Below the pieces are notes generated by a model. That model made no database searches and was not told the origin of the DNA. It worked only from the letters and a program-made list of their open reading frames with translations. 64,000 nt of DNA from Eubacteriales bacterium (GTDB lineage Bacteria; Bacillota; Clostridia; Oscillospirales; CAG-272). Of this stretch, positions 2,384 through 62,369 are shown piece after piece. The DNA lies in the NCBI GenBank assembly GCA_045659405.1, contig JAZOWX010000033.1, positions 4,205 to 68,204 on the forward strand. Reading direction: 5' to 3'. Numbering within the stretch: position 1 is the first letter of the stretch; the number at the start of each line of letters is the position of its first letter. The position numbers were made by a program, and so were the translations under genes.

Positions 2384-2451
2384 TTACGAGACTATTTACA
2401 AATTTCGTAATTTGTGCTACAATAAAACAAAAACTTTGCGAGGTAAAATTT

Positions 2452-4375: not shown

Positions 4376-4605
4376 AAGTTGTCAAAAAGTGAGAAAATCC
4401 ACCCGACAGCTTGAATATTTAAGCAGTTGTTTTTTGATTCTTAATGAAACAGCCACAAGGGCGTGCGGGATTTAGAGCGGAAAGCGTTGTTTGCACTCCG
4501 AAGCTGTATAAGCATACTGCGAGAGGGGGCAAACGGCGGTAGAATAGAAAACTATAATAAAACCGGGAAAACCGCAGGTTTTCAACCTTAATTTCTTAAT
4601 GTTAG

Positions 4606-4658
4606 ATAAAAATACGGCAGAGGCACTGTTTTTTGACAATGCTTCTGCCGTTTTCTAT
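4606..4658. terminator. bidirectional rho-independent terminator (pyrB 3' end; also faces the HTH gene)
   Basis: Stem CGGCAGAGGCA (4615-4625) pairs with TGCTTCTGCCG (4640-4650) with 1 mismatch. It is flanked by an A-run upstream and TTTT downstream. Confidence 0.55.
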
Positions 4659-4715
4659 TCGGTTACGCCTAAATGACGCAGCCCCTTTTTGTTTTATGGT
4701 TTCTGTAAAAACGTA

Positions 4716-5771: not shown

Positions 5772-5993
5772 AATAGCTCCTTAACCGTAAGGGAATCGAA
5801 CTCATAAGGCTTTGAAAGATAGATTTTCCCAGATACATCACCGAATTTTTCTTAAATATGTGCATATTCTTCAAAAAATTCGGCTCGTCTATGAAAAAAT
5901 CTATTGTTTCAAAACTGCTTCGCATCTTACGGCGAATAAATTTTTGATGGATTTTGTTGTGACGAGTCGCAGTAAAGTACGAACTTTACAAGG

Positions 5994-6650
5994 CTATGCC
6001 CGAGCGCCGTTTATTTCGAGATATTTCTTTATGCGCTCAACGTTTTCACGGTTTTTCTCGTCTTCCTCGAGGTATTCGATGATATCGTAAACGTCAACTA
6101 CCGAGTAAACCGGGAATCCGAATTCCTCGCCAACTTCAGCCATTGCGGATTTTTCGGTCTTGCCCTTTTCTTTTCTGTCAACCATAACGAACGTAGCGAT
6201 AACCTTTGCTCCATTCAAGGAGGAAAGAATTTCCATACTCTCGCGTATTGCAGTTCCTGCTGTAATTACATCCTCAACGATAACGATGTTCTCACCCTCT
6301 TTTGGCACGTAGCCTACAAAAACACCGCCCTCACCGTGGTCCTTTGCTTCCTTTCTGTTAAAGAAGAAGGGAAGGTCAAGTCCGGATTTTGAAAGAGCAA
6401 CGGCAGATGAAACGGCAATCGAAATTCCTTTGTATGCCGGGCCGTAGAGTACGGCTTTTTTGTTGCCTATCTTTTCAAGGTAGGCTTTTGCGTAAAATTC
6501 ACCGAGCTTCGATATCTGCTCGCCTGTTTTTATGTCACCGGCATTGATGAAATAGGGAATCTTTCTTCCGCTTTTTGCGGTGAAATCTCCGAATTTAAGA
6601 ACTCCGGCATCTTCAAGAAACTTTATAAATTCTCTTTTGTAGCTTTCCAC
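5994..6650 (-). CDS. pyrE: orotate phosphoribosyltransferase
   Basis: GVLKFGDFTAKSGRKIPYFINAG and the PRPP-binding VIVEDVITAGTA motif. Confidence 0.9.
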   Translation of the reverse strand: MESYKREFIKFLEDAGVLKFGDFTAKSGRKIPYFINAGDIKTGEQISKLGEFYAKAYLEKIGNKKAVLYGPAYKGISIAVSSAVALSKSGLDLPFFFNRKEAKDHGEGGVFVGYVPKEGENIVIVEDVITAGTAIRESMEILSSLNGAKVIATFVMVDRKEKGKTEKSAMAEVGEEFGFPVYSVVDVYDIIEYLEEDEKNRENVERIKKYLEINGARA

Positions 6651-6664
6651 TTTTAACTCTCCTT

Positions 6665-7363
6665 TTAGTCTACGAACTCACGAATGCATCTTTCATAAGC
6701 TGCAACGGGGTCTTGGGCTGCTGTGATAGGTCTGCCTACAACTATGTAGTCCGAGCCGATTTTCTTTGCCTCGGCGGGTGTCATAACTCTGACCTGGTCG
6801 CCAAGCTCGCCATCTGCAAATCTTACACCGGGCGTTACGGTTATAAAGTCTTTACCGCAGGTGTCGTGCACCTTGCCTGCCTCAAGTGGTGAGCATACGA
6901 TTCCGTCAAGTCCGGCACGCTTTGCGCAGGATGCGTAGTGCATAACAACCTTTTCAAGAGGCTCGTTTATAAGAAGGTCTTCTTTCATTCTTTCCTCGCT
7001 TGTCGAGGTAAGCTGTGTTACGGCAATGAGCAGGGGGCGGGTGCCGTCGGGCTTTGTAAGGCCCTCTATTGCGGCTTCCATCATAGCGACGGTTCCCGCA
7101 GCGTGAAGGTTTGTCATATCAACGTCAAGTCCCGAAAGGACAGCCATTGATTTTTTTACAGTGTTGGGAATGTCGTGAAGCTTAAGGTCGAGGAATATCT
7201 TATGACCTCTTTTTTTAATTTCACGTACTATCGAGGGGCCCTCGGCATAGTAAAGCTCCATTCCTATTTTAACGAAAGGCTTTTTACCCTGGAATTTATC
7301 AAGAAATTCAAATGTTTTTTCAGCGCTTGCAAAGTCGCAGGCGATAATTACGTCACGTCCCAT
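6665..7363 (-). CDS. pyrF: orotidine 5'-phosphate decarboxylase
   Basis: IIACDF..., KIGMELYY and [13 protein letters not shown] motifs. Confidence 0.9.
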
Positions 7364-8274
7364 CAGTGAGCACCTCCGATTATTTCTTTAAGTGATTTAA
7401 TACCGTATTTTTCCATAGCACGGGGAAGAGCCTCTATTATGTCACGGCAAGCGTACGGATTAACGAGGTTTTCAGCACCAACCTCGACAGCCGCAGCGCC
7501 TGCAAGCATAAATTCGATTACGTCCTCTGCCGTAGCGATTCCGCCCATTCCGACAATCGGGATTTTTACCGCATCGTAAACCTGGTAAACCATTCTGATG
7601 GCAACAGGCTTGATTGCGGGGCCGGAATAACCGCCCGTTTTGTTCGCAAGAAGCGGCTTTTTGCTCTTCAGGTCTATTCTCATACCGAGAAGCGTATTGA
7701 TAAGGCTGATGCCGTCAGCACCCTCTGCCTCACAAGCTTTAGCTATCGAAGCAATGTCGGTAACGTTTGGTGAAAGCTTGATTATAAGCGGCTTCTTGGT
7801 AACCGCTCTTACAGCCTTGGTTATTTTTCCTGCCATTCCGGGGCTTGTGCCGAAGCTCATACCGCCGCCGTGAACGTTGGGGCAGGAGATATTAACCTCA
7901 AACCAACCGATATCATTTTCGCTGTCGAGTGCGGAAACCGTGTAAACGTATTCCTCCTCGGAAAATCCGCTGACGTTTGCCATAACCGGCTTTCCGAACA
8001 CCCGGCGAAGCTTTGGAAGCTCGGTGTCGATAACTCTTTGTACACCCGGATTCTGAAGTCCTACTGCGTTGAGCATACCCGACGGGCATTCAGCTATTCT
8101 CGGGGTCGCATTGCCGAAGCGAGCATCCTTCGTAGTACCCTTGAAGGAGAGTGTGCCGAGCATATTTATGTCGTAAAGCTCTGCAAATTCATAGCCGAAG
8201 CCGAATGTTCCGCTGGCGGGAATTACAGGGTTTGTAAGCTTTATACCGCAAAGCTCTGTTGAAATATCTACCAT
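7363..8274 (-). CDS. pyrD: dihydroorotate dehydrogenase B, catalytic subunit
   Basis: Class 1B DHODH pattern ([24 protein letters not shown]), paired with pyrK. Confidence 0.9.
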
Positions 8275-18200: not shown

Positions 18201-19823
18201 ATGCAAGAGAAATTTATCAGCCTTTTATATCCCGACGAGTCATCACAGATGTTCCATTCGGACAGACGCAATCTGCCGAATATATCCGAGCAGGTTTGTG
18301 ACGAGCTGGGGCTTAATGAAATATTCGATCTGAAAAACAGCGAGCTTTCGGATTTCTTTACCGCCGACCCCGACGTTATTGCATACCGTCAAGCGGTGAT
18401 TTCGGATATGATGAATATACCCGAGCTTAAGGAAATGCTCGGCAGAGTTCAGCCGATACTTGACGATATACTTGAGCTTCAGCGCCTTGAGGCGGACAGC
18501 TCTTCGGCGGGTGACTCTTATCTTTACAGCATAACCGAGATTGAGCTTTACGTTTCCTGCATAGATGCCTTGCACGACGGATTTGCGAAAATTGCTGACA
18601 GACTTGCGAGTCCTGCATTCCGTCAGCTCTCCGACTACATTTCCGAGCTTTCGGACTCGGAGTATTACCGAGAGCTTGTAAAGCGGTTGGCGGCGCTTTC
18701 CTCACGTGTCAGAGAGGTGCGCAGTATTACCGTGGGTGTAAATCTTGACAGAGAGCTTCGTCCTGAAAGTGCCGGTGTTATCTCGATAAATTCCGAGCAG
18801 TTCAAGTCGGGAAAGATGCTTGACAAAATACTCCGTATGTCCTTTAAGAACGATGCATATACCTGCATTGCGGATCTTACACCGTTTGGTAAGGGGCAGA
18901 GTGAAAACAGGCAGGAGGCGCTTATCGGCGCATTCAACTCGGCTATTGAGGACGTGTTTAAAAGCTCGGTGCGAGGTTGGCGCTCGATAGTGGGTGATTA
19001 CGTCCTTGACAATACCGACTTTCTTCTTAAGCTTGCGCCGGAAATTGAGTTTGTAAGCCGTGCTGTGGAGCTTTTACACCGTCTTACCGACGTTAAAGGC
19101 GAGAAAATAACCGTGCCGATTACAGCACCTATCGGGGAAAAAGCATTTTCGGCAAAGGGAATTTACAATCCCCGTGTGGCGCTTGCGGTTGATGATGCTA
19201 TGGTGCTTAATGACGTTGAGTTCGACGACGATGCGAGGATATACGTTATAACAGGCCCTAACCGAGGCGGAAAATCGGTTATAACAGTGGCTGTCGGAGC
19301 GGCGCAGGCTATGTATCAGCTCGGACTTCCGGTTGCGGCAGAATCCGCAAGAATATCTGCGGTTGACGGAATCTTTACGCATTTCCCCGAGGGCGCTGAC
19401 GACACGATTGATAAGGGACGACTCGGTGAGGAATGTGCGCGTCTTGGAGAAATATTCGCAGATGCATCGGGCGACAGTATGATACTGCTCGACGAGTCGC
19501 TTTCGTCAACCGGTGCTTACGAGGCATCGTATATAGCTTCCGAGATACTTACGGGATTTGCGGTGCTTGGCTGTCGCGGAATATTTTCCACTCACCTGCA
19601 CGAGCTTGCGGCAAACATTCCCGATATCAACGCTCGCTCGAGGGAAATGGGCGGTGTTATGACAGACACGCTTGTTGCGGGTATCGAGGAGGGGGAGCGC
19701 TCGTTCAAAATTTACAGAGCGAAGCCCGACGGTAAGTCGTATGCCCGTGATATTGCCAACAAATACGGTCTTTCGTTTGAGAGCATAATGAAAAGTAAAA
19801 ACATAGGGAGGGATAAGTCGTGA
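18201..19823 (+). CDS. MutS-related ATPase (MutS domain V only, no mismatch-binding domain)
   Basis: Walker A ITGPNRGGKS, Walker B MILLDESLSSTG and STHLHEL motifs in the C-terminal half. The N-terminal ~300 aa is not recognisable. Confidence 0.8.
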   Translation: MQEKFISLLYPDESSQMFHSDRRNLPNISEQVCDELGLNEIFDLKNSELSDFFTADPDVIAYRQAVISDMMNIPELKEMLGRVQPILDDILELQRLEADSSSAGDSYLYSITEIELYVSCIDALHDGFAKIADRLASPAFRQLSDYISELSDSEYYRELVKRLAALSSRVREVRSITVGVNLDRELRPESAGVISINSEQFKSGKMLDKILRMSFKNDAYTCIADLTPFGKGQSENRQEALIGAFNSAIEDVFKSSVRGWRSIVGDYVLDNTDFLLKLAPEIEFVSRAVELLHRLTDVKGEKITVPITAPIGEKAFSAKGIYNPRVALAVDDAMVLNDVEFDDDARIYVITGPNRGGKSVITVAVGAAQAMYQLGLPVAAESARISAVDGIFTHFPEGADDTIDKGRLGEECARLGEIFADASGDSMILLDESLSSTGAYEASYIASEILTGFAVLGCRGIFSTHLHELAANIPDINARSREMGGVMTDTLVAGIEEGERSFKIYRAKPDGKSYARDIANKYGLSFESIMKSKNIGRDKS

Positions 19824-20680
19824 GTATGGTTATAGGAATAGACGTCGGCGGCTCGACAACTAAAATCGTCGGCATAAGACAGACCGATAACGCCACGTCG
19901 CTTATCGAGCCTCAATTTGTTCGTGCAAACGACCCGATGACGTCAACCTACGGCGCTTTCGGAAAGTTTACGGACGAAAACAGAATACAGATATCCGACG
20001 TGGACAGAGTTATGATGACCGGTGTGGGTTCATCTCATATAAAGCGAAATCTTTACGGCCTTGAATGCCGTAAGGTGGAGGAATTCCAAGCTATTGGCAG
20101 GGGCGGCCTCTATCTTTCGGGACTGGATGATGCGATAGTCGTCAGCATGGGCACGGGAACTGCCATAGTCCATGCAAAATCAGGCGGACGTATGACCTAT
20201 CTCGGCGGTACGGGCGTAGGCGGCGGAACGCTTATGGGACTTTCAAAGCTTATGCTTTCGGCTGAAAGTGTTGAGCATATAGAGGAATATGCGGATACAG
20301 GCTCGCTTGCAAACGTGGACCTGCGCATAAAGGATATAACTGCCGATTCGAAAAGCACGGGACTCAATGCCGAGCTTACGGCTTCGAATTTCGGAAACGT
20401 TTCGGATATAGCCACCAAGGGCGATATAGCTCTCGGAATTCTCAATATGGTTTACGAAACGATAGCGATGACGTCAATATTTGCCGCTCGCTCACGTGGG
20501 GTGCGTGATATCGTGCTTACGGGAAACCTCACGATAATCGGTTATTGCCGAAAGAAATTCGAGGAATTCAATCACCTTGGCTACGGTGTGAATTTTGTAA
20601 TACCGAAGCTTGCTCAATTTGCTACTGCGATTGGTACGGCGCTTGTCGGCTTGGATGAGAGCTCGGAGGAGTCCGTATGA
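19820..20680 (+). CDS. coaW: type II pantothenate kinase-like ASKHA-fold kinase
   Basis: GIDVGGSTTKIV, MGTGTA, GGTGVGGGTLMGL, ELTASNFG and ATAIGTAL line up with the S. aureus CoaW motifs as I remember them. The GTG start overlaps the upstream stop (GTGA). Confidence 0.7.
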   Translation: MSMVIGIDVGGSTTKIVGIRQTDNATSLIEPQFVRANDPMTSTYGAFGKFTDENRIQISDVDRVMMTGVGSSHIKRNLYGLECRKVEEFQAIGRGGLYLSGLDDAIVVSMGTGTAIVHAKSGGRMTYLGGTGVGGGTLMGLSKLMLSAESVEHIEEYADTGSLANVDLRIKDITADSKSTGLNAELTASNFGNVSDIATKGDIALGILNMVYETIAMTSIFAARSRGVRDIVLTGNLTIIGYCRKKFEEFNHLGYGVNFVIPKLAQFATAIGTALVGLDESSEESV

Positions 20681-21102
20681 ACATACTTCGATTTATGATA
20701 CCGAAGAGCTTGGTTTCGTACGTGGAAGTTGATAATACGGTAAGGCAGGCGCTTGAGAAAATGCGCTTTCACAGATATGCGGCGATACCCGTGCTTGATA
20801 AGTCGGGAAAATACGTCGGAACTCTGCGAAACGACGACCTTTTTGAATACTTTTTAGACAGCGGAAATTTCAATTCCCGATCTGCGGAGAGGGATGAGGT
20901 TTCATTGATACTGCAGTCCGGATATAAGCCCGTGCATCATAATGCAACGATGAATGAGCTTATAGAAAACGTCAAGGAGCATAATTTTGTTCCGGTTGTT
21001 GACGATCGGGGCTGCTTCATAGGAATAATTTTACGACGGGATATTCTGAATTTCCTTTTGAGCAATTACAAAGAAAATCAGGGGTCCGATTTAGGGGGAT
21101 AA
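20677..21102 (+). CDS. CBS domain pair protein
   Basis: Two CBS-like units (AIPVLDKSGKYVGTL / FVPVVDDRGCFIGII). ATGA overlap with coaW and a GGAGGAG RBS. Confidence 0.8.
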   Translation: MNILRFMIPKSLVSYVEVDNTVRQALEKMRFHRYAAIPVLDKSGKYVGTLRNDDLFEYFLDSGNFNSRSAERDEVSLILQSGYKPVHHNATMNELIENVKEHNFVPVVDDRGCFIGIILRRDILNFLLSNYKENQGSDLGG

Positions 21103-21108
21103 AAATCG

Positions 21109-24100
21109 ATGTCAGATTTGACTAACATCAACGAAAACGAAGCCGTTAATGTCGGTGGGGCTTCGGAAAACAAGGAGCAGGGTGCGGCTGCGGATGCGGC
21201 GCAGCTTGCGTACCTTGTTTACGCAAGAAAATACAGAAAGAAGCTGCAGGCGGAAAAGCGAAAGGCGGCAAAAGCGGCGGCAGAGGCCAAGGAAGCTGAA
21301 GCTGCAGAAGCAGCGGCGGAAGAAGCTTCCACCGAGATGCCCGAATCTGCGTCCGCTGTGGAAAACGAGCTGCCCGTAGCAGAGGCTGCGCCCGAACAGC
21401 AGTCGGAGCAGATGCCAAAGCCGCAGGATGAGGAAGCTCTCGCTGACGGTCAAGCACAGCAGGCGGCAGAGGATAATCAGGAAGCTGCCGAAGATGCGGC
21501 AGAGCCTGAAAAAACCGACAATGACAATAACGTAGAGGACGAGCGCAAATCTGATGCGTCCGTATCCGAGGCTACACCTACCGAAGCAGAGGCAGAGCCT
21601 GAAGCAGAAGCTGCGCCCGAAACGGAAACTGCGCCCGAGACGTCTGAAACCGAGAATTCTTCCCCTGATTTCTCGGATGATTCGGATATGGTCATCAAGG
21701 TGGACAGCGAGCCGCAGAAGAAGAAAAATACACTTGACGGCATTGATATGGATCTCAACATTGGCGAACCCGAAGAGCCGGAAGAGCCCCAAAATGAGAA
21801 GAATACACTTGACGGTGTTGATATGGATCTCAATATGGGAGAGCTTGCATCTGCTCCCACCCCCGGACAGATGCCGAGAAATCCCGATGACGGTATGACG
21901 ATTCGCATTGATGAGCAGATAAAGGAAAACGAAAATCTTATTAATATAAGCGCAAGAGTTTATCCCGAAGCGGCATTCGATTCTCTTATGAGAGAAAAAG
22001 CCGCTATCACCAAGATGATAGACGACCATTACAATGCTTATGCTGATGAAATGGAGCGCCTCAGAAAGAAGCATATGTTCCTTCGCATGGATGCAACCGC
22101 AAGAGCGGCTGCAGAGCGCAGCGAGGAATTCAAGCTTCTTCAGCAAGAGGAGGAGCGTTACAACCGTGAGGTTAAGGATCTTGAACGCCGCCGTGACGAG
22201 GCTGCGAAGACATATCTTGACCGCAAGGCCGACCTTGAGCGCATCATAGATGAATTTGATGCAAAGAAGCGTGATATGGATACCCTTGCCGGTGCAGCGC
22301 AGAGAATAGCTGCCGGCGCGGCGGACGTTACTTCCGCAATCGCAAACGGACTTGCGCAGAGCGGATTTGACAGCAATGCCGCAAGAGCAGAGGCGGCTGT
22401 TGCCAATGCCAACCTCGAAAAGGAGCGTGCTGTTGCCGCAGCAGTCCTTGAAAAGGAAAAGGCACTTGCAGATGCAAGGCTTGAAGCCGAAAAGAGAGCT
22501 GCTGCCGAAGCAAGGCTTGAAGCTGAAAAGAAAGCTGCTGCCGAAGCAAGACTTGCGGCTGAAAAGAAAGCCGCCGAGGCAAAGCCCGAAGCCGCACGTG
22601 CCTCTGACGAAAAGGCAAAAGAGCCTGCCGTTAAGACAGCGCCTATGGATACAAAGGGTCAAGGACTCGAGGCTGCCGAGCCCGAAAAGAGCAAGCCTGC
22701 GGGTCACGTAGTAGTGCCGGGTGCTATCGACAAGGCGCGTGATGATGCACAGCTTCAGAAAAAGCTTGCCGAGCGCTTAAGCGAGCCTAAACGTATAGAA
22801 GTAGAGCCGAAGGACCTTCCTGCGTATATCGCATCTGCGGAAAAGGATCTTTCCAAGCTTGATAAAGAATACAAAAAACTTGAAAACGCAGCGCCTAAAA
22901 CCGAGGCGGAGCGTATAGAAAACGCAGTAGACCGTCTTGGTGTAAGGCGTCGTGCGGTTGAGCGAATGACGGATAAGCTTCTCGCTTGCAGAGCCGCAGG
23001 CGCACCCACGTCTGTGTGCGAAAAGCACAGAGACGAGCTTGGCTCGGCTGTCGCACGCTATAATGCGGACGTTGACGGGTACAAAGCTCTTACAGGTCAC
23101 GAGCTTACCCGTGCCGAGTCTGATATGGCAGAGCGTGTTTTGCGTGGAGAGCCTTATCAGCAGTTGCCCGTCATAAAGTCTCGTAACGAGGTGGTTTCAA
23201 AGGAGGACGGCAAGCCTGTTGAGGATGCCGCACCTGCGGATATAGAGAATGCACCGCTTAAGGTAGATACTGTTGTAGATAACAGACGTCAGCGCAGCGC
23301 TGATGCTGAAGATAGAGTGAGCGAGCGCACACCTGATGAAGGCTACGCAAAGGAGCAGGGTGAAGACCGTCTGCCCCAGGGCGAGTATGCCGACGTCTCG
23401 GGCGCAAAGAAAAAGCCGAGTGCGCTTGACGGACTTTCCAAGCGTGAGATACGCAGAAGAATGAATGCCGAGAAGGCGGCTCTTCGTGAGCAGTCGCTCG
23501 AGCTTGCCGAGTCTGCAAAGAAAAATGCCGCAAAATCCAAGGAGGCTGCAAAGCTTGCCAAGCATGGCAGCAAAGAAGAACGCCAAAAGAACAAAGAGGA
23601 AGCGATTGAGTATGCTAAACGCAGTGCGGCAGACGAAGCGCTTTCCAAGGAAAAGGCACAGACCGAAAAGTCTTTGAAGACACTCAAGGATTACGAGAAA
23701 TACCTGCTTGACCGTGAGGCGTTGGATGCTGTCGCAGAGCCTGATACCTCGGCTTACGACAAGGCGCTCGAAGCTCGCAAGGCTGATGAAGAAAGGGTTC
23801 TTCGTGAGCTTGAAAGAGAAGATCAGGATCTCGAGAGCCTTGCACGTACCGACGAGCTTGATGAGGCTGTTGCCGAGGAGGATGCGGAGCTTCAGCGTCA
23901 GCTTTCCGAATACCGTAATGAGCAGATAAAAAGAGCAGACGTTGATCTTGCCGGCTTATCTTCATATCTTGAATCGACTCAAAAGGATCTTGATGAGCTT
24001 GATAAGCAGTATAAGGAGCTTGAGGCGCAGGAGCCGGCAAATGATGCCGAGCGCATAGAAAATGCCGTAGCTCGACTTGGCGTAAAGCGCGGTGTTGTTG

Positions 24101-27100
24101 AAAAAATGACAGATAAGCTCCTTGCTTGTAAGGGAGCGGGTGCGCCGAGCGCTGTTTGCGAAAAGCACAAAAACGAGCTTAACGATTCTGCGGAGCAGTA
24201 CAATTCAATAGTTGACGAGTACAAGGCTCTGACAGGTCACGACCTCACACGTGCAAAGACCGATATGGCAGACCGTATTCTTCGTGGCGAGGAGTATCAG
24301 CTGCTGCCTGTTGTCAAGTCGCGCCATGAGGTGCTCTCGACAGAAGACGGACAGCCGGTTGATAACGTTTTGTCCTCCGATGCCGAAGGTGCGCCTATAA
24401 AGATAGATACCGTCGTTGACGGAAAGCATCAGCTTACCGAAGAGGTCGAGCCGAACAAGGAAGACGGCACAGGAAAAGACGCAACCGTTATTATGACGGA
24501 AAAGGAAATTCCCGCCTTCTTCAAAAAGCAGAAACAAAAAGAGGAAAAGCTTCGTGAGCGTGACAGCGTTCTTGCAACGCTTAATCCGGATAATACCGAG
24601 GATAGAATAGCTGTTATCGTTGAGCGTCTGGGAACACAGCGTGAGCTTGTAGACAGTCTTTCAAAGGATATGAAGCTTGCTGTAAAGACGGGTGATAAAA
24701 AGAAAACACGCTCCTACAAAAAGCAGCTTACCTCTCACATAAATCAATATAATAATCTCGCCGATGAATATGAACGCATTACGGGCAACTCGCTCACACG
24801 TGCGGACAAAAACATTCCGGGTTACATAATGAGGGGCGAGAAATATAAGCCTATTCCCGTATTGACCTACCGCAAGGAAGCGCCCGACGGAACTCTGCTT
24901 TCGGATAGTCTCGGAGCAGGCACGACCTGCGGCGCTGCGTATTCGCTTATTCCCGAAAGACAAAGACGTGAGCTTGAAAAGCGCGGTGTCATAGAAAAGA
25001 AGAAGGCAACCTCCATAGAGGGACTTTCAAAGAAGGAAGCAAGAGAGCGTTTGAAGGCGGAGAAGGCCGCTCTTCACGAGGAGTATCTCGCTCTTGCCGA
25101 ATCAGCGAAGAAAAATGCCGCAAAATCTGCCGAGGCTGAAAAGCTTGCAAAGAAGGGCAGTAAGGAAGAGCGTGAAGCTCACCTGGCAGAGGCTGCCGAG
25201 TACGCTAATCGCAGTGCAACCGAGGAAGCGCTCGCAAGGCAGAAGGCACAGACAGAAAAAGACTTGAGAACGCTCAAGGATTACGAAAATTATCTGATTG
25301 AGCGTGAAAAGGCTGCAGAGCTTTCCCGAGCACGTGAGGAAGAATATCGGGCAGCTCTCAGCGCAGTACAAAAAGAGCCTACCGAGGAAATGCTCGAATA
25401 CGAGCGCTTTAGAAAGCTCGACAAAAAACAAAAGCGCGAAAAGCTTAAAGAAGAGAAGAAAAAGCTCTTCGAGGCGGCGCGTGATGACGAAGACAAAGCA
25501 AAGCTTGTCGCACAGCAGGCAAAGGAAGAAAGAAAGCTTGCAAAGCGCGGAACACGTGAAGAGCGTGCAGAGCACAGAGCAGAGGCTGATAAGCTTGAAG
25601 CGAAAGCAAAGCAGGCGAGCGAGGATGCAAAAAATGCCAAGGAAACGGCAATAGCGCTCAAAAACGAAAAGGATTATGAGCGTTACCTCAAGGGACGTGC
25701 AGAGCGCGCGGAAATCCGCCGCCGTGAAGAAGAGGTAGCAAAGAGCGCAAGAGAAAAAGCACCCGAAACGCTTGATGAGCAAGAAATCGCAGAGCAGACC
25801 GAAAAGAGCGATGCTCTTATCTCGCAGGCTGATACCGAGGAAATCGTTCATTCGAAGATTGACGATGAAGAAGCAGCTCCGAGCGGTGAAGCTGCGGAAG
25901 AGTCGGCTTATTCAAGAGATTCCGCTGATGAGGCTTTGAGTAGTGAAGCTTCAAGCGATGCGGCACAGGCAGCAGTTGAAAGCTTCAGACAGCTTTCTGC
26001 GCAAGAGCAGGAGCAACAGATTGACGAGGATAAAAAGCTCCTTCTTGAGGAAGCTCGTGTAAACGAGGAAAAGGCAAGCCTTGCCGAGGAGCAGGCCCAG
26101 AAGGAAAGAGAGCTTTCAAAGAGCGGAACTCCCGCAGAGCGTGATGCGCACAAGGCAGAGGCAGAAAGACTGCTTAACAAGAGCGCAGAGTATAGCCTTG
26201 CCGCACAGAGGAGCGCAGCGCTTGCTGATGAAATTTCATCCACCGAGGCTTACGAAAGCTATCTTTCAGGGGTTGCATCGGGTGACGGTCAAATCAGACC
26301 TTACGGTATGTCAAATGATGAAGCCTACGAGACTATGGAAGCCGCAAAACGGCAGATAGGCTCTACCGACAAGGCGCTTGCAAGAGCAGAGCTTGAGGAG
26401 TTTATGAGTCTTTCCGCTAAAGAAAAGCGGGACGTAGTAGAGCAGAAGAAGCGCGCACTTCTCGAAGAGGCTCAAAATAATAAGGAAAAGGCGGAGCTTA
26501 TTTCCGAGCAGGCAAAGGAAGAAAGAAAGCTTTCAAAGAGCGGAACACGCACCGAGCGCACCGCACATAGAGCAGAGGCTGAAAGACTTGATAAGATTGC
26601 AGAAGACGCTCGTGAAAAAGCAAAAGCGGCAAAAGCGGCAGCTAAATCCTTCAAAAACAAGAACGACTATCAGGAATACCTGCAAATGCGTGCGCAGATA
26701 GAGGAATCCTTGTTCAAGAAGAATGAGGAAGCCTTCGACGCAAAAGTAAAATCAATTACCCCCGCAGCATATTACGGCGAATCCGAGCTTGATGAGTTCA
26801 AAAATCTCTCTCGCAGAGAAAAGAGAGAAAAAATCAAGAGCGAGAAGCTTGCGCTGCTTGAGGGAGTACGTGCAAACGAAGAACGGGCAAGGCTTGCGCT
26901 TGAGCGTGAAAGAGAAGAAAGAAAGCTCGCAAGACGCGGTACACGTGCCGAGCGTGCAGAGCATGCAGCGGAGGCTGAAAGACTTCGCAAGATAGCCGAG
27001 GATGCCGAGGAAAAAGCAAGAATAGCAAAGCGTGAAGCAAGGTTGCTCAAAGAAGAGGGCGACTACGTTGATTATTTGACAAGACGTGATGCGATTACTG

Positions 27101-30100
27101 AAAGCTTCGACGAGGAAGACTCTGTTAAGAGCGTGTCGGGCGAGACCGCAGAAATATCTTCGACTGACGAGGCGGTAGACGTTGCGGATGCGGCAGCAGC
27201 TGCGCCTGCAGAAGCATCAACCTCACAAACCGACACCGAAGAAGCAATTTCGGAAAAAGCACACGAGACAGAGCTTGAAAAATTCAGAAAGCTCACAGAA
27301 GATGAGCAGCTGGAAAGAATCAACGAGGCAAGAATTCGTCTTCTTGAGGAAGCACGTGCCAATGACGAAAATGCCAGAATGGCAGAGGACGCTGCGAGAA
27401 GAGAATACAGACTTTCACAGCAGGTAGCGCCCGAGGAGCGTGATTTCCACAGAGCTGAAGCGGACAGACTTGTACGCAGAAGCGAAGAATTCCAGAAGGC
27501 AGCGGAGCTTGGTATAAAGACCGTAAAAGAGCTTGACAGCCGCAGTGCTTATGAAAAACACCTGACTGCCAAACTCGCAAAGGATACCGATGAGGACGGT
27601 CAGATTAAGCCTTACGGCATGACCGATAAGGAAGCTTACGAGAGCATGCTTTCCGCAAAGCGTTATGCGGCTAATTCTACCGATAGGGCGCTTGCAAAGG
27701 CAGAGCTTGAGGAATTCAGCAAGCTTTCGCTCAGCGAAAAACGTGCGAAAATCGAAGAAGAAAAGCTTGCGCTTCTGAAAGAAGCACGTGAGAATGCGGA
27801 AAAGGCAAAGCTCGCAGCAGAAAAGGCAAAGGAAGAAAAGAAGCTTGCCAAGCGAGGAAGCCGTGCAGAGCGTGCCGAGCATGAGGCAAATGCTGAAAGA
27901 CTTGAAAAGAGTGCGGATAACGCTAATGAAAGCGCAAAGACCGCAAGGCAGACTGCGGCACTTCTGAAGAGCCAGGAGGATTACAAGAATTACCTGGCAA
28001 TGCGTGCGCAGGTCGAGAAATTCATTCAGGAAAGCGAAGTAGCAAAGAGCGCAAGGCGCGACGCTGAAATCGTTTCTGCAATTGAAAATACAGAGCTTGG
28101 TAAATTCAGACGTCTTTCCGCACAGGCAAAGAAGGAAAGAATCAAAGAAGAAAGACTTGCTCTGCTTGAGGATGCTCGTGAAATCGAGAAGCAGGCAAGA
28201 ATTGCAAAAGAGGAAGCTGCGATAGAAGCAAGGCTTTCGAGGCTCGGAACAGACGAGGAGCGTGTAGCACACGAGGCAAGAGCAGATGTCCTTTCGAAGG
28301 AAAGTGATGAAAACAGCAAAATTGCCGAGTCGATAGTACAGACCGCAAAGGAAATAGGCGATATAACCGCCTATGAGAAATACCTCGCACTAAAAGAAGA
28401 AAAAGCGTTGGCTTCCGCAAAGCAGCGCAACGCAAGACGCAGAGATTTAAGCACTCTTGACGGACTTTCGGAGCGTGAGAAGAAGGCTCGTCTTATAGAG
28501 GAGCGCAATTTGCTTCTCAATGAGGCTGAAGCGTACGATGCCGAAGCGAAGATAAGCAAAGAAAACGCCAAGGCGGCGAAGTCTTCTGCGAGAAACGACA
28601 GATACCGTGAAAGAAGTGAAACGAGAGCCGAGCTTAAAGCGCTTTCGAAGCTTGCGGCAGAGCAGAAGCTTCAGGCTAAAGAAGCAAGAATAGCGGCAAA
28701 ATCGCTAAGGAGCGTAGCCGATTATGAAAAATACCTTGCTTCGGGTGCGGCGGCTAAAGCTGCGGCATACAAGAAGCCTGTCGGAGCCAATGCGGATTCT
28801 GCGATCAAGACCTACGGCTTGACCGATAAGGAAGCCTATGAAAGCATGGTTGCCGTCAAACGTATGGAGGCGGCTTCATCCGACAAGGTGCTTGCAAGAG
28901 CAGAGCTTGAGGACTTCAGAAAGCTTTCCACAAAAGAAAAGAAAGCAAAGATTAAGCAAGAAAAGGCTGCTCTTCTTGAGCAGGCGCGCGAGAGCGAGGC
29001 TGAAGCAAATCTTGCCGCTGTAAGGGCTAAAGAGGAAAAGAAGCTTGCAAAACGCGGAATGCGCGCAGAGCGTGCCGCGCACAAGGAAAAGGCTGATAAG
29101 CTTTCGCTGCGCAGCGTAGAGCTTGGACAGACTGCAAAGCAGCGCGCAAAGACTGCCAAGGAAATTAACAGTATATACGCTTACGAGAAGTATCTTGAAA
29201 ACAAGGTAGCTTCCATTCCTGCGTCTGAAGAAAAGCCGACCTCAAAGAGCTATAATAACGGACTCTCGCCGCTTGAGATGCAAAGGACTCTTAACGATGC
29301 GGCCATGGCAGAGCAAAGCATCTCGCAGATAACTGCACTCGATGAGTTTAATGCGCTCCCCGAGCGAGAGAAAAAGGCGAAAATTGCCGAGGAGCGTAAG
29401 CTTCTTCGTGACGTTGCCGACTCTCTTGATGCAGAGTCAAAGGCAAACAAGACGAGCGTAAGACAGACTAAGGCGCTCTCAAGACGTGATTTGTACATAG
29501 GCATTGAGGATTCGTTCAACGAATCCAAGCTGTTTGCGAAGCGCAGAGCAGAGCAGAAGCACCAGGCAAAGGAAGCAAGAAAGGCTGCAAGATCTCTTAA
29601 AACCGTAAATGATTACGAAAAGCATCTTGCTAAAGCAGAGCTTGCTGCAATTCACGAGGAAGAAAAAACACGTAAGGCTTTGGCTCACGAGATAAGTCTG
29701 CTCACAAACGTGCAGCCTGTAAGAGCTCGCAGTGCAGAGCCGTCTTATGAGGCGTACGACAGATATCTTGAAAAGCTTGAGATGGCTAAGGCTTACTCCA
29801 AAGAAGCAGAGCTTTCCGAGCGTCAAAAGAATGCTGCCGAGCAGACGCTCGCAAAGACAGAGCTTGAAAAGTTCAGAGCTCTTTCCCCGAAGAAACAGAA
29901 GGAAAGAATCAGAGAAGAGAAGCTTGAGCTGCTTGCACAGGCTCGTGAAAACGAGGAGCAGGCAAAGCTCAATGCCAAGATGGCAAACGAGGAAAGAAAG
30001 CTTGCAAAGCGTGGAAGCCGCGCGGAGCGTGTTAAGCACAAGTCCGAGGCTAACAAGCTTTCACGCAGAAGCGAAGAGTATGATATCGCTGCCAAGAATG

Positions 30101-32394
30101 CGGAAAAAACCGCAAAAGAGCTTAACAGCATAGAGTCATACGAAAGATATCTTGCCGCAAAGGAGCTTCTTGCACAGCCCGGAAAAGAAGTTAAGTCTTA
30201 CGACTCGTCGGCTTATGACAGAGGTGTTGCTGTAAGAGAGTTCTCGAAGCAGAATGCCAAGGGGGCAGAGCCGTCACATCAGGCTTATGACAGACATCTT
30301 GAAAAGCGTGAGATGGCAAAGGCTTATCTCGAGGATAGCAAAGCACCCGTAAAGGCACAGCCCTCGGTTGAGCCCGAGCGCACACCCGAGCCCTCATACA
30401 GCGAGTATGAAAGACATCTTGCAAACCGTGAGATGATGGACTTTGCAAAAGACGCTGACTTCGGTAAAAAAGCTGCAAAAGAAAAGAGCGGCCTGATGTC
30501 GCTTGACGGACTTTCGAAGCAGGAGAAAATGCTGTTGGTTGCACAGGAGCGCACAGAGCTTCTTAACGCTGCATACTCTCTTGAAGCAGAGTCAAAATCC
30601 AACCAGGCTAATGCCGAGGTGGCAAAGGCTCGCTCGAAGAGCGGACCGCGCCGCACAAGAGCCGAGGCAAAGGCTGAAGCGCAAGAGCTTTCGGCGCTCA
30701 GTAAGGCGCAGAGCCGTCAGGCTAAAATAGCCAAAAAGACCGCTAAATCTCTCAAAAACGTAAGCTCGTATGAAAAATACCTTGCTACAAAAGAGCTTTT
30801 GACAAACTCGCAAAAGACAAAGGATGACTCTTTCGCTACTTCGGCTTATGACAGAAGCCTTATGGAAAAAGAGCTTTCTGCAATGGGTGCCAAAAGGTCG
30901 GAATCATCCTATGACGAGTACGAAAGACATCTTGCGAAAAAAGAGCTTTTGAGTGCAAATGCGTACAGACCCGAGCCAACGTACGACGAGTATGACAGAC
31001 ATCTTGAAAAGCGTGAAATGCTTCAGGTTGCCAAAGACCCGACGCTCAGCGGCACATATTCTGCAAGTCAAAAACCTCTTGCAGGACGCACCAAGCGTCA
31101 GCTTCGTTCGGAAGCAAAGCGCAGAAGTGCGGAATGTGAGCTTGAGGCTAAACGTCTTTTGAAGGAGTCAAAGGATGCGGATAAGCTTGCAAAAGAGGAG
31201 CGTAAGCAAGCCAAAAGAGCAAAGCGTGCCCAAAAGCCGTACCACTTAAGTCAGGCTGAAGCGTATGAAGCCCACAGCCTTGAATTGAAGGCGTTGGCCG
31301 AGGCCGCAACACTTGAGGCGGCGGAGCTTAAGGATTTGCACACTCTCGCTGAGTTTGAAAAATACAATGCAAACAAGGAAGCCCTCGCTTTTGCGGCATC
31401 CCGTGATCAGTATGAGGCAAAGCCCCGTGCAGGTAAAGCGGATTTTGCGGATGCAGACCGTCATATAAAGCACGACCGTGCCGCAATAAACAAATTCTGC
31501 CGTGAGCAATCCGATTATGACGAGACAATGATATTGCGCCGTTATGAGACAAAGCTTGCGACAGCGTATTCGGAAATGCAGATAAAGAAGCTTCATTTCG
31601 GTGAAAAGAACCGTAAGTACAAGAAAAAGTACGACGCTCTTTGCAAGGAGCGTGCAATGGTAGAGGCTCATATTCCGAAGGCGATGAAGGCTGAAAAGCG
31701 TGACAACGAGCGTTATTATGCAGTAGTAAAGAGCGATATCAATAAGATGAAGCTTCCGAAGCACGCCAATAAAGAGGCGCTTACAGAGCTTCAAATAGAG
31801 ATTGAAACTCTGCTTCGTGAGCGTGATGCTGTAAACCGTGAGCTTATTGCGCTTTACAATAGCTCAAAAACTGCGGACGACACCAAGAATAACACCTTTG
31901 AACGTCTTAAAACAGCGAGAAAGGGCGCAAAGTCTGCGTACAACAAGCAAAGAAAGCTTGCTAACGAAATAGACGCTTTGCATATACCTCTTGACGAAAA
32001 GAAGAAAATCTATGACCCGATGAACCGTATAACGCAGCTTAATGCCGAGATAAACGAGCTTATATACCGCATCGAGCGTGAAAAGCTCAAGGGACGTGCA
32101 AAGAATGCGGCTATATCGAGCATCAAAAAGAAAAAGAGCGAGCGTGCGCACCTTGAGCGTGTTGTAAAGGCTCTTTCGAAAAAGGCGAAGAAAAAGGCTT
32201 ACCGTGAGCGTGAGGAAAGAAAGCTTCAGCTGTTCTGGATAGTAATTCTTCTTATCGTTGTAGCAGCAGGAATTGCGGCTTGGTATTTCCGTGCGGATAT
32301 AATGAGTTATATAAAAAGCTTTGCTAAAGCTACCATTCCCGAATCCGTACTGACGGTTTTGAGTTCTGTATTTGGAGGTGCTATAAATGGCTGA
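21109..32394 (+). CDS. giant (3,761 aa) tail-anchored, highly charged coiled-coil repeat protein of unknown function
   Basis: A single stop-free frame of 11,286 nt, with an AGGGGGA RBS 9 nt upstream of the ATG. In-frame repeat families are diverged yet keep the frame. A C-terminal hydrophobic helix lies at 32224-32289. No signal peptide. Confidence 0.85.
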   Translation: MSDLTNINENEAVNVGGASENKEQGAAADAAQLAYLVYARKYRKKLQAEKRKAAKAAAEAKEAEAAEAAAEEASTEMPESASAVENELPVAEAAPEQQSEQMPKPQDEEALADGQAQQAAEDNQEAAEDAAEPEKTDNDNNVEDERKSDASVSEATPTEAEAEPEAEAAPETETAPETSETENSSPDFSDDSDMVIKVDSEPQKKKNTLDGIDMDLNIGEPEEPEEPQNEKNTLDGVDMDLNMGELASAPTPGQMPRNPDDGMTIRIDEQIKENENLINISARVYPEAAFDSLMREKAAITKMIDDHYNAYADEMERLRKKHMFLRMDATARAAAERSEEFKLLQQEEERYNREVKDLERRRDEAAKTYLDRKADLERIIDEFDAKKRDMDTLAGAAQRIAAGAADVTSAIANGLAQSGFDSNAARAEAAVANANLEKERAVAAAVLEKEKALADARLEAEKRAAAEARLEAEKKAAAEARLAAEKKAAEAKPEAARASDEKAKEPAVKTAPMDTKGQGLEAAEPEKSKPAGHVVVPGAIDKARDDAQLQKKLAERLSEPKRIEVEPKDLPAYIASAEKDLSKLDKEYKKLENAAPKTEAERIENAVDRLGVRRRAVERMTDKLLACRAAGAPTSVCEKHRDELGSAVARYNADVDGYKALTGHELTRAESDMAERVLRGEPYQQLPVIKSRNEVVSKEDGKPVEDAAPADIENAPLKVDTVVDNRRQRSADAEDRVSERTPDEGYAKEQGEDRLPQGEYADVSGAKKKPSALDGLSKREIRRRMNAEKAALREQSLELAESAKKNAAKSKEAAKLAKHGSKEERQKNKEEAIEYAKRSAADEALSKEKAQTEKSLKTLKDYEKYLLDREALDAVAEPDTSAYDKALEARKADEERVLRELEREDQDLESLARTDELDEAVAEEDAELQRQLSEYRNEQIKRADVDLAGLSSYLESTQKDLDELDKQYKELEAQEPANDAERIENAVARLGVKRGVVEKMTDKLLACKGAGAPSAVCEKHKNELNDSAEQYNSIVDEYKALTGHDLTRAKTDMADRILRGEEYQLLPVVKSRHEVLSTEDGQPVDNVLSSDAEGAPIKIDTVVDGKHQLTEEVEPNKEDGTGKDATVIMTEKEIPAFFKKQKQKEEKLRERDSVLATLNPDNTEDRIAVIVERLGTQRELVDSLSKDMKLAVKTGDKKKTRSYKKQLTSHINQYNNLADEYERITGNSLTRADKNIPGYIMRGEKYKPIPVLTYRKEAPDGTLLSDSLGAGTTCGAAYSLIPERQRRELEKRGVIEKKKATSIEGLSKKEARERLKAEKAALHEEYLALAESAKKNAAKSAEAEKLAKKGSKEEREAHLAEAAEYANRSATEEALARQKAQTEKDLRTLKDYENYLIEREKAAELSRAREEEYRAALSAVQKEPTEEMLEYERFRKLDKKQKREKLKEEKKKLFEAARDDEDKAKLVAQQAKEERKLAKRGTREERAEHRAEADKLEAKAKQASEDAKNAKETAIALKNEKDYERYLKGRAERAEIRRREEEVAKSAREKAPETLDEQEIAEQTEKSDALISQADTEEIVHSKIDDEEAAPSGEAAEESAYSRDSADEALSSEASSDAAQAAVESFRQLSAQEQEQQIDEDKKLLLEEARVNEEKASLAEEQAQKERELSKSGTPAERDAHKAEAERLLNKSAEYSLAAQRSAALADEISSTEAYESYLSGVASGDGQIRPYGMSNDEAYETMEAAKRQIGSTDKALARAELEEFMSLSAKEKRDVVEQKKRALLEEAQNNKEKAELISEQAKEERKLSKSGTRTERTAHRAEAERLDKIAEDAREKAKAAKAAAKSFKNKNDYQEYLQMRAQIEESLFKKNEEAFDAKVKSITPAAYYGESELDEFKNLSRREKREKIKSEKLALLEGVRANEERARLALEREREERKLARRGTRAERAEHAAEAERLRKIAEDAEEKARIAKREARLLKEEGDYVDYLTRRDAITESFDEEDSVKSVSGETAEISSTDEAVDVADAAAAAPAEASTSQTDTEEAISEKAHETELEKFRKLTEDEQLERINEARIRLLEEARANDENARMAEDAARREYRLSQQVAPEERDFHRAEADRLVRRSEEFQKAAELGIKTVKELDSRSAYEKHLTAKLAKDTDEDGQIKPYGMTDKEAYESMLSAKRYAANSTDRALAKAELEEFSKLSLSEKRAKIEEEKLALLKEARENAEKAKLAAEKAKEEKKLAKRGSRAERAEHEANAERLEKSADNANESAKTARQTAALLKSQEDYKNYLAMRAQVEKFIQESEVAKSARRDAEIVSAIENTELGKFRRLSAQAKKERIKEERLALLEDAREIEKQARIAKEEAAIEARLSRLGTDEERVAHEARADVLSKESDENSKIAESIVQTAKEIGDITAYEKYLALKEEKALASAKQRNARRRDLSTLDGLSEREKKARLIEERNLLLNEAEAYDAEAKISKENAKAAKSSARNDRYRERSETRAELKALSKLAAEQKLQAKEARIAAKSLRSVADYEKYLASGAAAKAAAYKKPVGANADSAIKTYGLTDKEAYESMVAVKRMEAASSDKVLARAELEDFRKLSTKEKKAKIKQEKAALLEQARESEAEANLAAVRAKEEKKLAKRGMRAERAAHKEKADKLSLRSVELGQTAKQRAKTAKEINSIYAYEKYLENKVASIPASEEKPTSKSYNNGLSPLEMQRTLNDAAMAEQSISQITALDEFNALPEREKKAKIAEERKLLRDVADSLDAESKANKTSVRQTKALSRRDLYIGIEDSFNESKLFAKRRAEQKHQAKEARKAARSLKTVNDYEKHLAKAELAAIHEEEKTRKALAHEISLLTNVQPVRARSAEPSYEAYDRYLEKLEMAKAYSKEAELSERQKNAAEQTLAKTELEKFRALSPKKQKERIREEKLELLAQARENEEQAKLNAKMANEERKLAKRGSRAERVKHKSEANKLSRRSEEYDIAAKNAEKTAKELNSIESYERYLAAKELLAQPGKEVKSYDSSAYDRGVAVREFSKQNAKGAEPSHQAYDRHLEKREMAKAYLEDSKAPVKAQPSVEPERTPEPSYSEYERHLANREMMDFAKDADFGKKAAKEKSGLMSLDGLSKQEKMLLVAQERTELLNAAYSLEAESKSNQANAEVAKARSKSGPRRTRAEAKAEAQELSALSKAQSRQAKIAKKTAKSLKNVSSYEKYLATKELLTNSQKTKDDSFATSAYDRSLMEKELSAMGAKRSESSYDEYERHLAKKELLSANAYRPEPTYDEYDRHLEKREMLQVAKDPTLSGTYSASQKPLAGRTKRQLRSEAKRRSAECELEAKRLLKESKDADKLAKEERKQAKRAKRAQKPYHLSQAEAYEAHSLELKALAEAATLEAAELKDLHTLAEFEKYNANKEALAFAASRDQYEAKPRAGKADFADADRHIKHDRAAINKFCREQSDYDETMILRRYETKLATAYSEMQIKKLHFGEKNRKYKKKYDALCKERAMVEAHIPKAMKAEKRDNERYYAVVKSDINKMKLPKHANKEALTELQIEIETLLRERDAVNRELIALYNSSKTADDTKNNTFERLKTARKGAKSAYNKQRKLANEIDALHIPLDEKKKIYDPMNRITQLNAEINELIYRIEREKLKGRAKNAAISSIKKKKSERAHLERVVKALSKKAKKKAYREREERKLQLFWIVILLIVVAAGIAAWYFRADIMSYIKSFAKATIPESVLTVLSSVFGGAING
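22813..24897 (+). repeat. three copies of a ~130-160-aa module (copies 22813-23289, 23944-24426, 24505-24897) within the giant ORF
   Basis: Copies 1 and 2 share ERIENAV.RLGV.R..VE.MTDKLLAC..AGAP..VCEKH..EL...YN..VD.YKALTGH.LTRA..DMA.R.LRGE.YQ.LPV.KSR.EV. Copy 3 is divergent and lacks the Cys pair. Confidence 0.7.
23425..31368 (+). repeat. array of 14 (+1 degenerate) copies of an exactly 94-aa / 282-nt module separated by variable linkers, within the giant ORF
   Basis: Module boundaries ([FL]-x-x-L-S ... [DAS]-Y-E-x-[YH]-L) are at 23425-23706, 25015-25296, 25408-25689, 25984-26265, 26401-26682, 26797-27078, 27283-27564, 27715-27996, 28105-28386, 28456-28737, 28915-29196, 29347-29628, 29872-30153 and 30502-30783, plus a degenerate copy at 31087-31368. 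All are in frame with the ATG at 21109. Confidence 0.85.
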
Positions 32395-32608
32395 TTACAG
32401 ACAGGGACGTAATCCTATCGGAGCAATGTCTGCCGAGCAGCGTGCTGCCGCTATTGAAAAAGCAGAAATTCAAAGAATCCGCATCGTTGAATTGCTGGAG
32501 GAAAGAATGCAGGATTTCGCAAGACTCAGCGGTAAAAAATCGCTCGGTAAGCGTAAATACCGCATCGGAAAAGCTCCAAATGATTGGAAAAAGAAAAATA
32601 AGCTTTAA
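32387..32608 (+). CDS. small basic hypothetical protein (73 aa), translationally coupled to the giant ORF
   Basis: The ATG at 32387 overlaps the giant-ORF stop (ATGGCTGA). A GGAGGTG RBS lies 8 nt upstream. The product has a K/R-rich C-terminus. Confidence 0.55.
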   Translation: MADYRQGRNPIGAMSAEQRAAAIEKAEIQRIRIVELLEERMQDFARLSGKKSLGKRKYRIGKAPNDWKKKNKL

Positions 32609-62320: not shown

Positions 62321-62369
62321 TATATTCTGTTCGGTAGCCGATGCTGTGTTGATTTGCATCGACAGGTCT

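Follow-up and report, generated by a model that had tools for sequence, protein, structure and literature searches.

Several of the described proteins to which the locus reported here can be compared are built of helical repeats. The spectrin repeat is a three-helix bundle of about 106 amino acids (aa) in which helix C is continuous with helix A of the next repeat; nesprins are giant, tail-anchored proteins made of spectrin repeats, and EzrA carries bacterial spectrin-like repeats behind an N-terminal anchor. Ebh is an extracellular protein of FIVAR-GA units of about 126 aa, with dozens of modules, an N-terminal YSIRK signal and a C-terminal transmembrane helix. The protein described here is encoded in a stretch of 64,000 nucleotides (nt), hereafter the window, from an Eubacteriales bacterium of the class Clostridia (GenBank assembly GCA_045659405.1, contig JAZOWX010000033.1, positions 4,205 to 68,204). 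A single open reading frame (ORF) at window positions 21109..32394 on the + strand, which is also the strand of every window feature below unless another is given, encodes 3,761 aa and holds all fourteen diverged copies (B1 to B14) of a 94-aa module as well as a degenerate fifteenth (B15). The B unit is almost certainly a real domain of fixed length, and the best overall explanation, offered with moderate confidence, is that these paralogous copies are alpha-helical hairpin domains of a membrane-tethered cytoplasmic scaffold.

All fifteen segments delimited in a preliminary description of the window lie in frame 0 of the ORF, and each translates to 94 aa. The fourteen good copies fill 94 columns with zero gaps, both in a MAFFT L-INS-i alignment and in a second alignment, at pairwise identities of 20-69% (aa) and 39-71% (nt), which bears out the earlier claim of fourteen diverged modules free of insertions and deletions (indels); B15 alone forces a gap, of three residues, in MAFFT L-INS-i. 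A profile hidden Markov model (HMM) built from the fourteen copies recovers exactly those fourteen from end to end (HMM positions 1-94 on 94 residues, with B2 matching from position 2), finds B15, rightly called degenerate, as a partial match (aa 3346-3419, independent E-value 1.5e-4), and finds nothing further in the protein. The features that define the family, a length of 94 aa, the residues L4, L20, R53, Y90 and L94, and an end-to-end profile match, are present in 14 of 14 copies, and L4, Y90 and L94 are invariant in the modules. The motifs reported earlier are recognizable in looser form. The start F/L-x-x-L-S is present, but IEGLS, FRKLD, FRKLT and FNALP also occur; the end Y-E-x-[YH]-L is present, but its glutamate is not invariant (YQEYL, YVDYL and YKNYL occur); and the mid-module motif KLAKRG[ST]RAER.EH, said to recur in most copies, is found literally only in B8, although the wider pattern [KE]L[AS][KR][RS]G[STM][RP].ER..H occurs in seven of the fourteen and the tip L-[AS]-x-x-G/V in eleven. 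Residue G48, at the exact centre of the module, is likewise kept in 11/14 copies, flanked by K/R and S/T. The group of B10, B12 and B14 that had been set apart as a second subtype is distinct, but the copies fall into three subtypes, not two: I (B1, B2), II (B3-B9, B11, B13) and III (B10, B12, B14). Most type II copies also conserve E-L-[ED]-[EK] 3-4 residues upstream of the module, so the N-terminal boundary is good to about four residues.

The divergence of the copies is that of old duplicates under constraint. Synonymous differences amount to a proportion of 0.64-0.79 even in the closest pairs, at or near saturation, and non-synonymous ones to 0.19-0.33; the ratio of non-synonymous to synonymous substitution rates (dN/dS) is about 0.1-0.25 in these pairs, where it can be estimated. 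Because synonymous sites are saturated and nucleotide identity is as low as stated, the module duplications are old. The preliminary description had also named assembly collapse as a way in which the length of the array might mislead, and collapse or expansion in a short-read assembly is of no concern, since exact direct repeats in the ORF reach 26 nt at most and any repeat of more than 100 nt has diverged to 80% identity or less.

A search for the 94-aa unit elsewhere, which had been proposed at the same time, was made in a set of 1.84 billion representative proteins, with the fourteen-copy profile as query and a threshold of E < 1e-3. Ten carriers were found: the giant protein itself (14+1 modules; identical to P0001 of this set), P0002 (2,382 aa; six modules and a terminal one), P0003 (1,907 aa; five modules and a terminal one) and seven fragments. 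The homologues P0002-P0008, together with a locus designated L001, supply 18 non-terminal copies, of which 17 are 94 aa long and one, in P0003, 95 aa; thus, length is fixed in the family as a whole and not just in this array. Over the giant protein and its homologues together, 31 of 32 non-terminal modules have 94 aa and one has 95, and the conserved hydrophobic positions are 1, 4, 13, 20, 63, 84, 90, 93 and 94, with alanine-rich positions between them. The degenerate terminal module is 97 aa long in three proteins and shows no indel relative to the profile in P0003, P0006 and L001. Three comparisons serve as controls: the three A modules of the same protein (described below), at 27% identity, align with several blocks of gaps, indels occur in the C-terminal domain of the orthologues, and the linkers between the B modules differ five-fold in length.

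The fold was modelled with AlphaFold2. The sequence of B8, with the fourteen copies as alignment, gave a model with a mean predicted local distance difference test (pLDDT) score of 95 and a predicted template modelling (pTM) score of 0.79, in which a helix at residues 6-44, a turn at 45-49 (A-K-R-G-S) and a helix at 50-83 are followed by a short helix at 87-93 that bears D-Y-E-K-Y-L. A model of three consecutive modules (aa 2191-2555, comprising B8-B10 and their flanks) repeats the same three elements in every module; the third helix continues into the linker. By 10-residue block, pLDDT is 75-94 (mostly 86-94) within the modules and 56-66 in the two linkers, so that the module boundaries emerge from the model without being imposed, and the pTM score of 0.37 indicates that the modules are confident and their mutual arrangement is not. 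In the modelled hairpin, helix 1 has a hydrophobic period of 3.5 residues. The B module probably folds as a helical hairpin on this predicted structure, and the earlier proposal of a discrete folded unit under structural selection, most likely such a hairpin, has gained from the model, from the dN/dS values and from the retention of length in homologues. Its companion claim, that the array is not featureless coiled coil, agrees with the separation of confident modules from low-pLDDT linkers and with the acceptance of indels by the A modules at similar divergence.

Several observations weigh against this explanation or limit it. A test of hydrophobic positions for antiparallel symmetry was weak (best r = 0.31), and helix 2 has no clean heptad period. 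The linkers are also predicted to be helical, which would allow a molecule closer to a rod than to a chain of beads. All of the fold evidence comes from AlphaFold2 with a shallow alignment consisting of paralogues only, and AlphaFold2 tends to fold monomeric amphipathic helices back as hairpins. The module of P0003 with a one-residue insertion makes the length rule strong rather than absolute, compensating indels are possible in the divergent centre of subtype III, and the neighbouring genes, being housekeeping genes, carry little information on function and point to no particular pathway.

The alternative that best survives is that each module is part of a long charged helix (a single alpha-helix of ER/K type), or of a coiled coil or four-helix bundle formed between molecules, the protein then being a dimeric or filamentous rod like Scy, FilP or crescentin with the 94-aa period as the register between chains. 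The composition of the modules, 68% of whose residues are A, E, K, R or L, would suit such a rod, as would the heptad period of helix 1, the helical prediction for the linkers and the low pTM score of the three-module model; the AlphaFold2 models are of monomers only. The conserved turn at the exact centre of the module (G48 with its flanking K/R and S/T) speaks for a hairpin instead, as do the high pLDDT of the single-module model and the dips of pLDDT at the linkers, and linkers of 23-116 aa would break any long-range register between chains; the rod is accordingly considered rather unlikely.

A second alternative arises from the fold comparisons. When the module model was compared with PDB and BFVD by Foldseek, no match reached an E-value under 0.1, and the best ones are generic hairpins: CHMP1B, EsxA, PE/PPE, Vipp1, designed proteins and uncharacterized phage proteins. 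The CHMP1B hairpins superimpose with template modelling scores of 0.69-0.72 and root-mean-square deviations of 1.5-1.9 A over about 77 columns (the match with a score of 0.72 has E = 0.34), and Asgard ESCRT-IIIB, Snf7 and CHMP4B are also among the PDB fold matches. The modules could on these grounds be membrane-binding hairpins like those of ESCRT-III, PspA and Vipp1, and the protein a membrane-remodelling or membrane-stress factor that offers numerous basic hairpins to the inner leaflet. Like them, the module is a basic helical hairpin of about 80 aa, these families provide its best fold matches (scores of 0.65-0.75), and the protein is predicted to be membrane-anchored. However, no E-value is better than 0.3, and similar scores are obtained with EsxA, PE/PPE and designed hairpins, which indicates a generic hairpin; neither Snf7 nor PspA_IM30 is matched in Pfam, even at E = 10, or in NCBIfam; the module lacks alpha3-alpha5, the helices by which the ESCRT-III/PspA fold is defined; and it is repeated fourteen times in one chain, whereas the ESCRT-III-type proteins are separate polymerizing subunits. 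Such a membrane-remodelling role is very improbable.

Less probable again is that the region is hydrophilic, largely disordered and of low complexity, like late embryogenesis abundant proteins or hydrophilins, with its constant length an accident of recent duplication. The extreme content of A, E, K and R and the lack of any Pfam match across the whole protein are what one would expect of such a region, but the duplications are old, to judge from the saturated synonymous sites, and length has nevertheless been kept here and in orthologues, hydrophobic positions 4, 13, 20, 63, 84, 90 and 94 are conserved, and the AlphaFold2 models are confident. That the array or the ORF is an artefact, either a mis-assembled repeat or a non-coding open frame, is a negligible prospect even though only one contig is known to encode exactly this protein, given an open frame of 11.3 kb in a genome of 48% GC, exact internal repeats no longer than 26 nt, dN well below dS, and the orthologue P0002, identical in at least three independent assemblies and present at the same locus.

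The hairpin modules are arranged as follows. B1 (23425..23706, aa 773-866) follows the module A1, and B2 (25015..25296, aa 1303-1396), which is 69% identical to B1, follows A3; the gap of 436 aa between them contains two A modules of about 150 aa, in agreement with the wide separation reported earlier. B2 is followed by B3 (25408..25689, aa 1434-1527), B4 (25984..26265, aa 1626-1719), B5 (26401..26682, aa 1765-1858), B6 (26797..27078, aa 1897-1990), B7 (27283..27564, aa 2059-2152), B8 (27715..27996, aa 2203-2296; the sequence modelled), B9 (28105..28386, aa 2333-2426), B10 (28456..28737, aa 2450-2543), B11 (28915..29196, aa 2603-2696), B12 (29347..29628, aa 2747-2840; the most divergent copy), B13 (29872..30153, aa 2922-3015) and B14 (30502..30783, aa 3132-3225; 63% identical to the P0002 module at aa 1826). 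The degenerate terminal module B15 (31087..31368) requires a three-residue insertion and ends in FEKYN, and in all homologues its counterpart closes the array ahead of the C domain. The remaining linkers are 23, 36, 37, 38, 45, 50, 50, 59, 68, 81, 98, 101 and 116 aa long, within the range given before. Three of them, of a type designated 'a', are homologous: those before B5 (26266..26400; DGQIRPYGMSNDEAYETM...ALARAELEE), B8 (27565..27714) and B11 (28738..28914). The last three linkers contain five solo copies of the third-helix motif of the module (E-P-S/T-Y-x-x-Y-D/E-R-H/Y-L-x-x-K/R-E-M/L): EPSYEAYDRYLEKLEM between B12 and B13 (29737..29784), EPSHQAYDRHLEKREM (30268..30315) and EPSYSEYERHLANREM (30388..30435) between B13 and B14, and ESSYDEYERHLAKKEL (30901..30948) and EPTYDEYDRHLEKREM (30973..31020) between B14 and B15. 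The third helix seems to duplicate independently of the rest of the module. One further solo motif of this kind lies upstream of a module in L001.

The homologues give some indication of how the array arose. The carriers all come from uncultured Clostridia where a source is named; the one source named among the ten is a 'Clostridia bacterium' metagenome-assembled genome (MAG), with the hypothetical protein MBQ1260623.1. Genome scanning with the C-terminal domain found two loci, in an Eubacteriales MAG and an uncultured Ruminococcus MAG, and scanning of metagenomes with the same domain found one short locus. A homologue search with the C-terminal 342 aa as query returned no proteins; one with an alignment as query returned seven distant relatives, and one with the A-module alignment only three fragments. 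The modules of P0002 have their best reciprocal identities with B1, B2 and B3, with B10/B14, with B8/B11/B13 and with B14 (63%), from which it follows that the extra copies (B4-B9 and neighbours) reflect either expansion in this lineage or loss in the lineage of P0002. The homologous linkers before B5, B8 and B11, together with copies of 300 nt of DNA that lie 1,200 nt apart within the ORF and are 71% identical, imply that the array grew partly by segmental duplication of a linker with its module. The distant relatives at the same locus are proteins of 520-600 aa that combine two A modules with the C domain; some have a transmembrane helix and others not, and B modules are absent, so the B array is best regarded as a lineage-specific insertion into an older protein of A modules and C domain. 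In two more distant genomes the locus has two genes in place of one, and the first of the two codes for a larger protein composed of several A modules, of 1,817 aa in one genome and at least 1,884 aa in the other. The former (L007, locus positions 2441-7894) has an acidic N-terminus, several diverged A modules and internal hydrophobic helices, and the latter (L008, 2-5656) an acidic N-terminus and several diverged A modules; the product of the second gene (L007 8001-9575 and L008 5763-7334), of 524 aa, adjoins it and has two A modules and the C domain but lacks a transmembrane helix. The A module, with the motif Y-N-x-x-V-D-x-Y-x-x-L-T-G-x-x-L-T-R-A ... G-x-x-Y-x-x-x-P-V, occurs more widely in the family than the B module.

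From its N-terminus, the giant protein consists of an acidic, low-complexity region (net charge -50 over 290 aa), a conserved helical region, A1 (22795..23268, aa 563-720), B1, A2 (23938..24408, aa 944-1100), A3 (24487..24933, aa 1127-1275), B2, the array of B3-B14, B15, the conserved C-terminal domain (31369..32223, aa 3421-3705; about 285 aa, net charge +27), a single predicted transmembrane helix and a short tail. The acidic N-terminus contains the motif NTLDG[IV]DMDLN twice (21727-21759 and 21802-21834), as does that of the orthologue P0002; the duplicate could be a candidate short linear binding motif. Positions 22468-22575 hold three tandem 12-aa units (ADARLEAEKRAA, AEARLEAEKKAA and AEARLAAEKKAA) encoded by a 36-nt tandem repeat whose units match at 89%; no other near-perfect tandem repeat occurs in the giant ORF.

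As read from the amino acid sequence, the N-terminus MSDLTNINENEAVNVGGASENKEQ has no hydrophobic core and no signal peptide, and the only long hydrophobic stretch is the 22-residue transmembrane helix LQLFWIVILLIVVAAGIAAWYF (32224..32289, aa 3706-3727), which directly follows the K/R-rich stretch KKAKKKAYREREERK and precedes a tail of 34 aa. The helix is conserved in six homologues. A protein with no signal peptide, with a single transmembrane helix less than about 50 residues from its C-terminus and with positive charges on the N-terminal side of that helix belongs to the tail-anchored topological class, and because of the strongly basic residues before the helix, the positive-inside rule predicts that the bulk of the protein is cytoplasmic. 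A cytoplasmic tail-anchored topology is therefore likely, if a little less so than the hairpin fold. The charge of the array is divided between its parts: the B modules, from which tryptophan is absent, sum to a net +52 (about +3.7 each) and the linkers to a net -52.

The giant gene occupies a conserved position. Upstream of it lie genes for a 540-aa MutS-domain-V protein (18201-19823) that has the domain V ATPase only, with no mismatch-binding domain, and whose stop codon overlaps the start of the next gene; for a type II pantothenate kinase (coaW, 19820..20680), a neighbour that is conserved and that overlaps the start of the CBS gene with its stop codon; and for a CBS-pair protein (20677..21102), which ends 6 nt before the giant ORF and stands beside the giant gene in all related loci. 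Downstream, a basic ORF of 73 aa (32387..32608) shares its first 8 nt with the end of the giant ORF and is followed by rimP, nusA and infB. From the MutS-like gene to the 73-aa ORF, each stop codon overlaps the next start codon or lies close to it, and the same gene order is found in the contigs of P0002, which is the orthologue present without differences in three or more assemblies, and for P0003. The 73-aa ORF follows the gene in every related locus (68-73 aa, with an invariant G-K-A-x-N-D-x-K near the C-terminus) and matches no family in PHROGs, NCBIfam or PADLOC; its product may be a partner of the giant protein. The MutS-domain-V gene is found in the three closest loci. The CBS-pair protein resembles the cyclic-di-AMP-binding CbpB/DarB (82 bits, below the NCBIfam cut-off of 125). 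A thiamine pyrophosphate riboswitch lies at 62215-62326 on the - strand (Rfam RF00059, 70.8 bits, full length) and is the only Rfam match in the window at the gathering threshold. A phage or defence element was considered for the locus and rejected because of the housekeeping synteny and the lack of PHROG and PADLOC matches.

The preferred explanation, paralogous hairpin domains in a membrane-tethered scaffold, would work as follows. Each copy would fold on itself as an antiparallel hairpin, with helix 1 (about residues 6-44) and helix 2 (about 50-83) joined by a tight turn at L-[AS]-K-[RS]-G-[ST], the invariant Y90 and L94 carried by the short third helix and the invariant L4 at the opposite end. 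The two long helices would have to hold their register, with both ends of the module conserved, so that indels within modules would be removed by selection while the linkers remained free to vary in length. Basic modules, acidic linkers and a model that is confident of the modules and not of their mutual arrangement together suggest an array of rigid basic beads on a flexible acidic string, within a cytoplasmic protein that would be held in the membrane by its one C-terminal helix. The array would go back to old duplications, some of which copied a linker together with its module and recur at intervals of about 1.2-1.3 kb, and would have been inserted in this lineage between the A modules and the C-terminal domain that together make up the putative ancestral core. 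The array might then act as a length-tunable, multivalent scaffold or spacer extending from the inner face of the membrane, its reach or valency depending on the number of modules, and the candidate binding surfaces are the basic tips of the hairpins (K-R-G-S/T-R-x-E-R-x-x-H) and the repeated Y-x-x-Y-L helices. This scaffold or spacer function is a tentative suggestion, distinctly less secure than the fold or the topology.

If the explanation is correct, the array is a natural example of structural selection that fixes the length of a repeat while sequence, linkers and copy number drift, and the same chain holds its own controls in the linkers and A modules that accept indels. Three uncharacterized families are defined (A module, B module and C-terminal domain), in addition to the conserved 73-aa ORF, in little-known Clostridia of gut or rumen type, and the protein is a rare case of a giant, apparently cytoplasmic, tail-anchored bacterial protein. 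Practical use will be modest as long as neither a function nor a cultured host is found, and the B module is small and well behaved enough for biophysical tests.

Searches for known families place these units outside the described ones. No significant match was found in Pfam with the whole protein and seven sub-regions or in NCBIfam with the whole protein and a smaller set of sub-regions; PHROG and PADLOC, searched with sub-regions only, gave no match at E <= 0.01 for the A, B and C parts or the 73-aa ORF; sequence searches of PDB with the B, C and A profiles returned designed helical proteins or noise only; and nothing relevant was found in the literature on giant, tail-anchored or hairpin-repeat proteins in Clostridia. 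Judged by such sequence comparisons, the B module is a new, previously undescribed domain family of a familiar structural class and could be registered as such.

Proteins of that class, or of similar overall build, resemble the giant protein in different respects. WXG100 proteins such as EsxA and the PE/PPE proteins share a helix-turn-helix hairpin of about 90-100 aa and are among the fold matches, but the turn here is L-A-K-R-G-S/T with no W-x-G, the modules are embedded in a giant chain, and there are no type VII secretion genes near the giant gene, whose neighbours include coaW, the CBS gene, rimP and nusA. Scy, FilP and crescentin are likewise long helical proteins, charged and rich in alanine, that show long and unusual periodicities in sequence and are proposed to act as scaffolds; compared by description, they are continuous parallel coiled coils with no modules, linkers or transmembrane helix, whereas the giant protein has a conserved turn in the centre of each module and linkers of variable length. 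Ebh resembles it as a Firmicute protein of several thousand residues with helical modules of constant length and a C-terminal membrane anchor, but the FIVAR and GA models of Pfam match nothing in the giant protein, which has no signal peptide and whose bulk is predicted to be cytoplasmic, whereas Ebh is extracellular with a YSIRK signal. A surface adhesin was rejected for the lack of a signal peptide.

Spectrin, the nesprins and EzrA share the most general plan: an antiparallel helical unit of fixed length near 100 aa, repeated many times in a very large cytoplasmic protein with one terminal transmembrane tether and a repeat number that differs between relatives. The likeness to spectrin in the preliminary description holds as an analogy, a helical repeat of fixed length in a giant anchored protein, but not as a relationship, since the Pfam spectrin model (PF00435) matches neither the whole protein nor a single module, even at E = 10. 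Set apart by description and not by superposition, the B module comprises two long helices and a third of seven residues within 94 aa, rather than a canonical three-helix bundle of about 106 aa, and is joined to the next by variable acidic linkers of 23-116 aa instead of continuous helical junctions; EzrA is anchored at its N-terminus and the giant protein at its C-terminus. By analogy with these systems, the giant protein might be a bacterial counterpart of the membrane-tethered cytoskeletal ruler of the nesprin/spectrin kind, reaching tens of nanometres into the cytoplasm, with the number of modules (5 to 14, depending on the species) setting distance or valency and the conserved hairpin tips binding a partner of negative charge, for instance nucleoid DNA, RNA or ribosomal particles; improbable as it is, this specific form of the comparison would fit the fixed position of the gene before rimP-nusA-infB.

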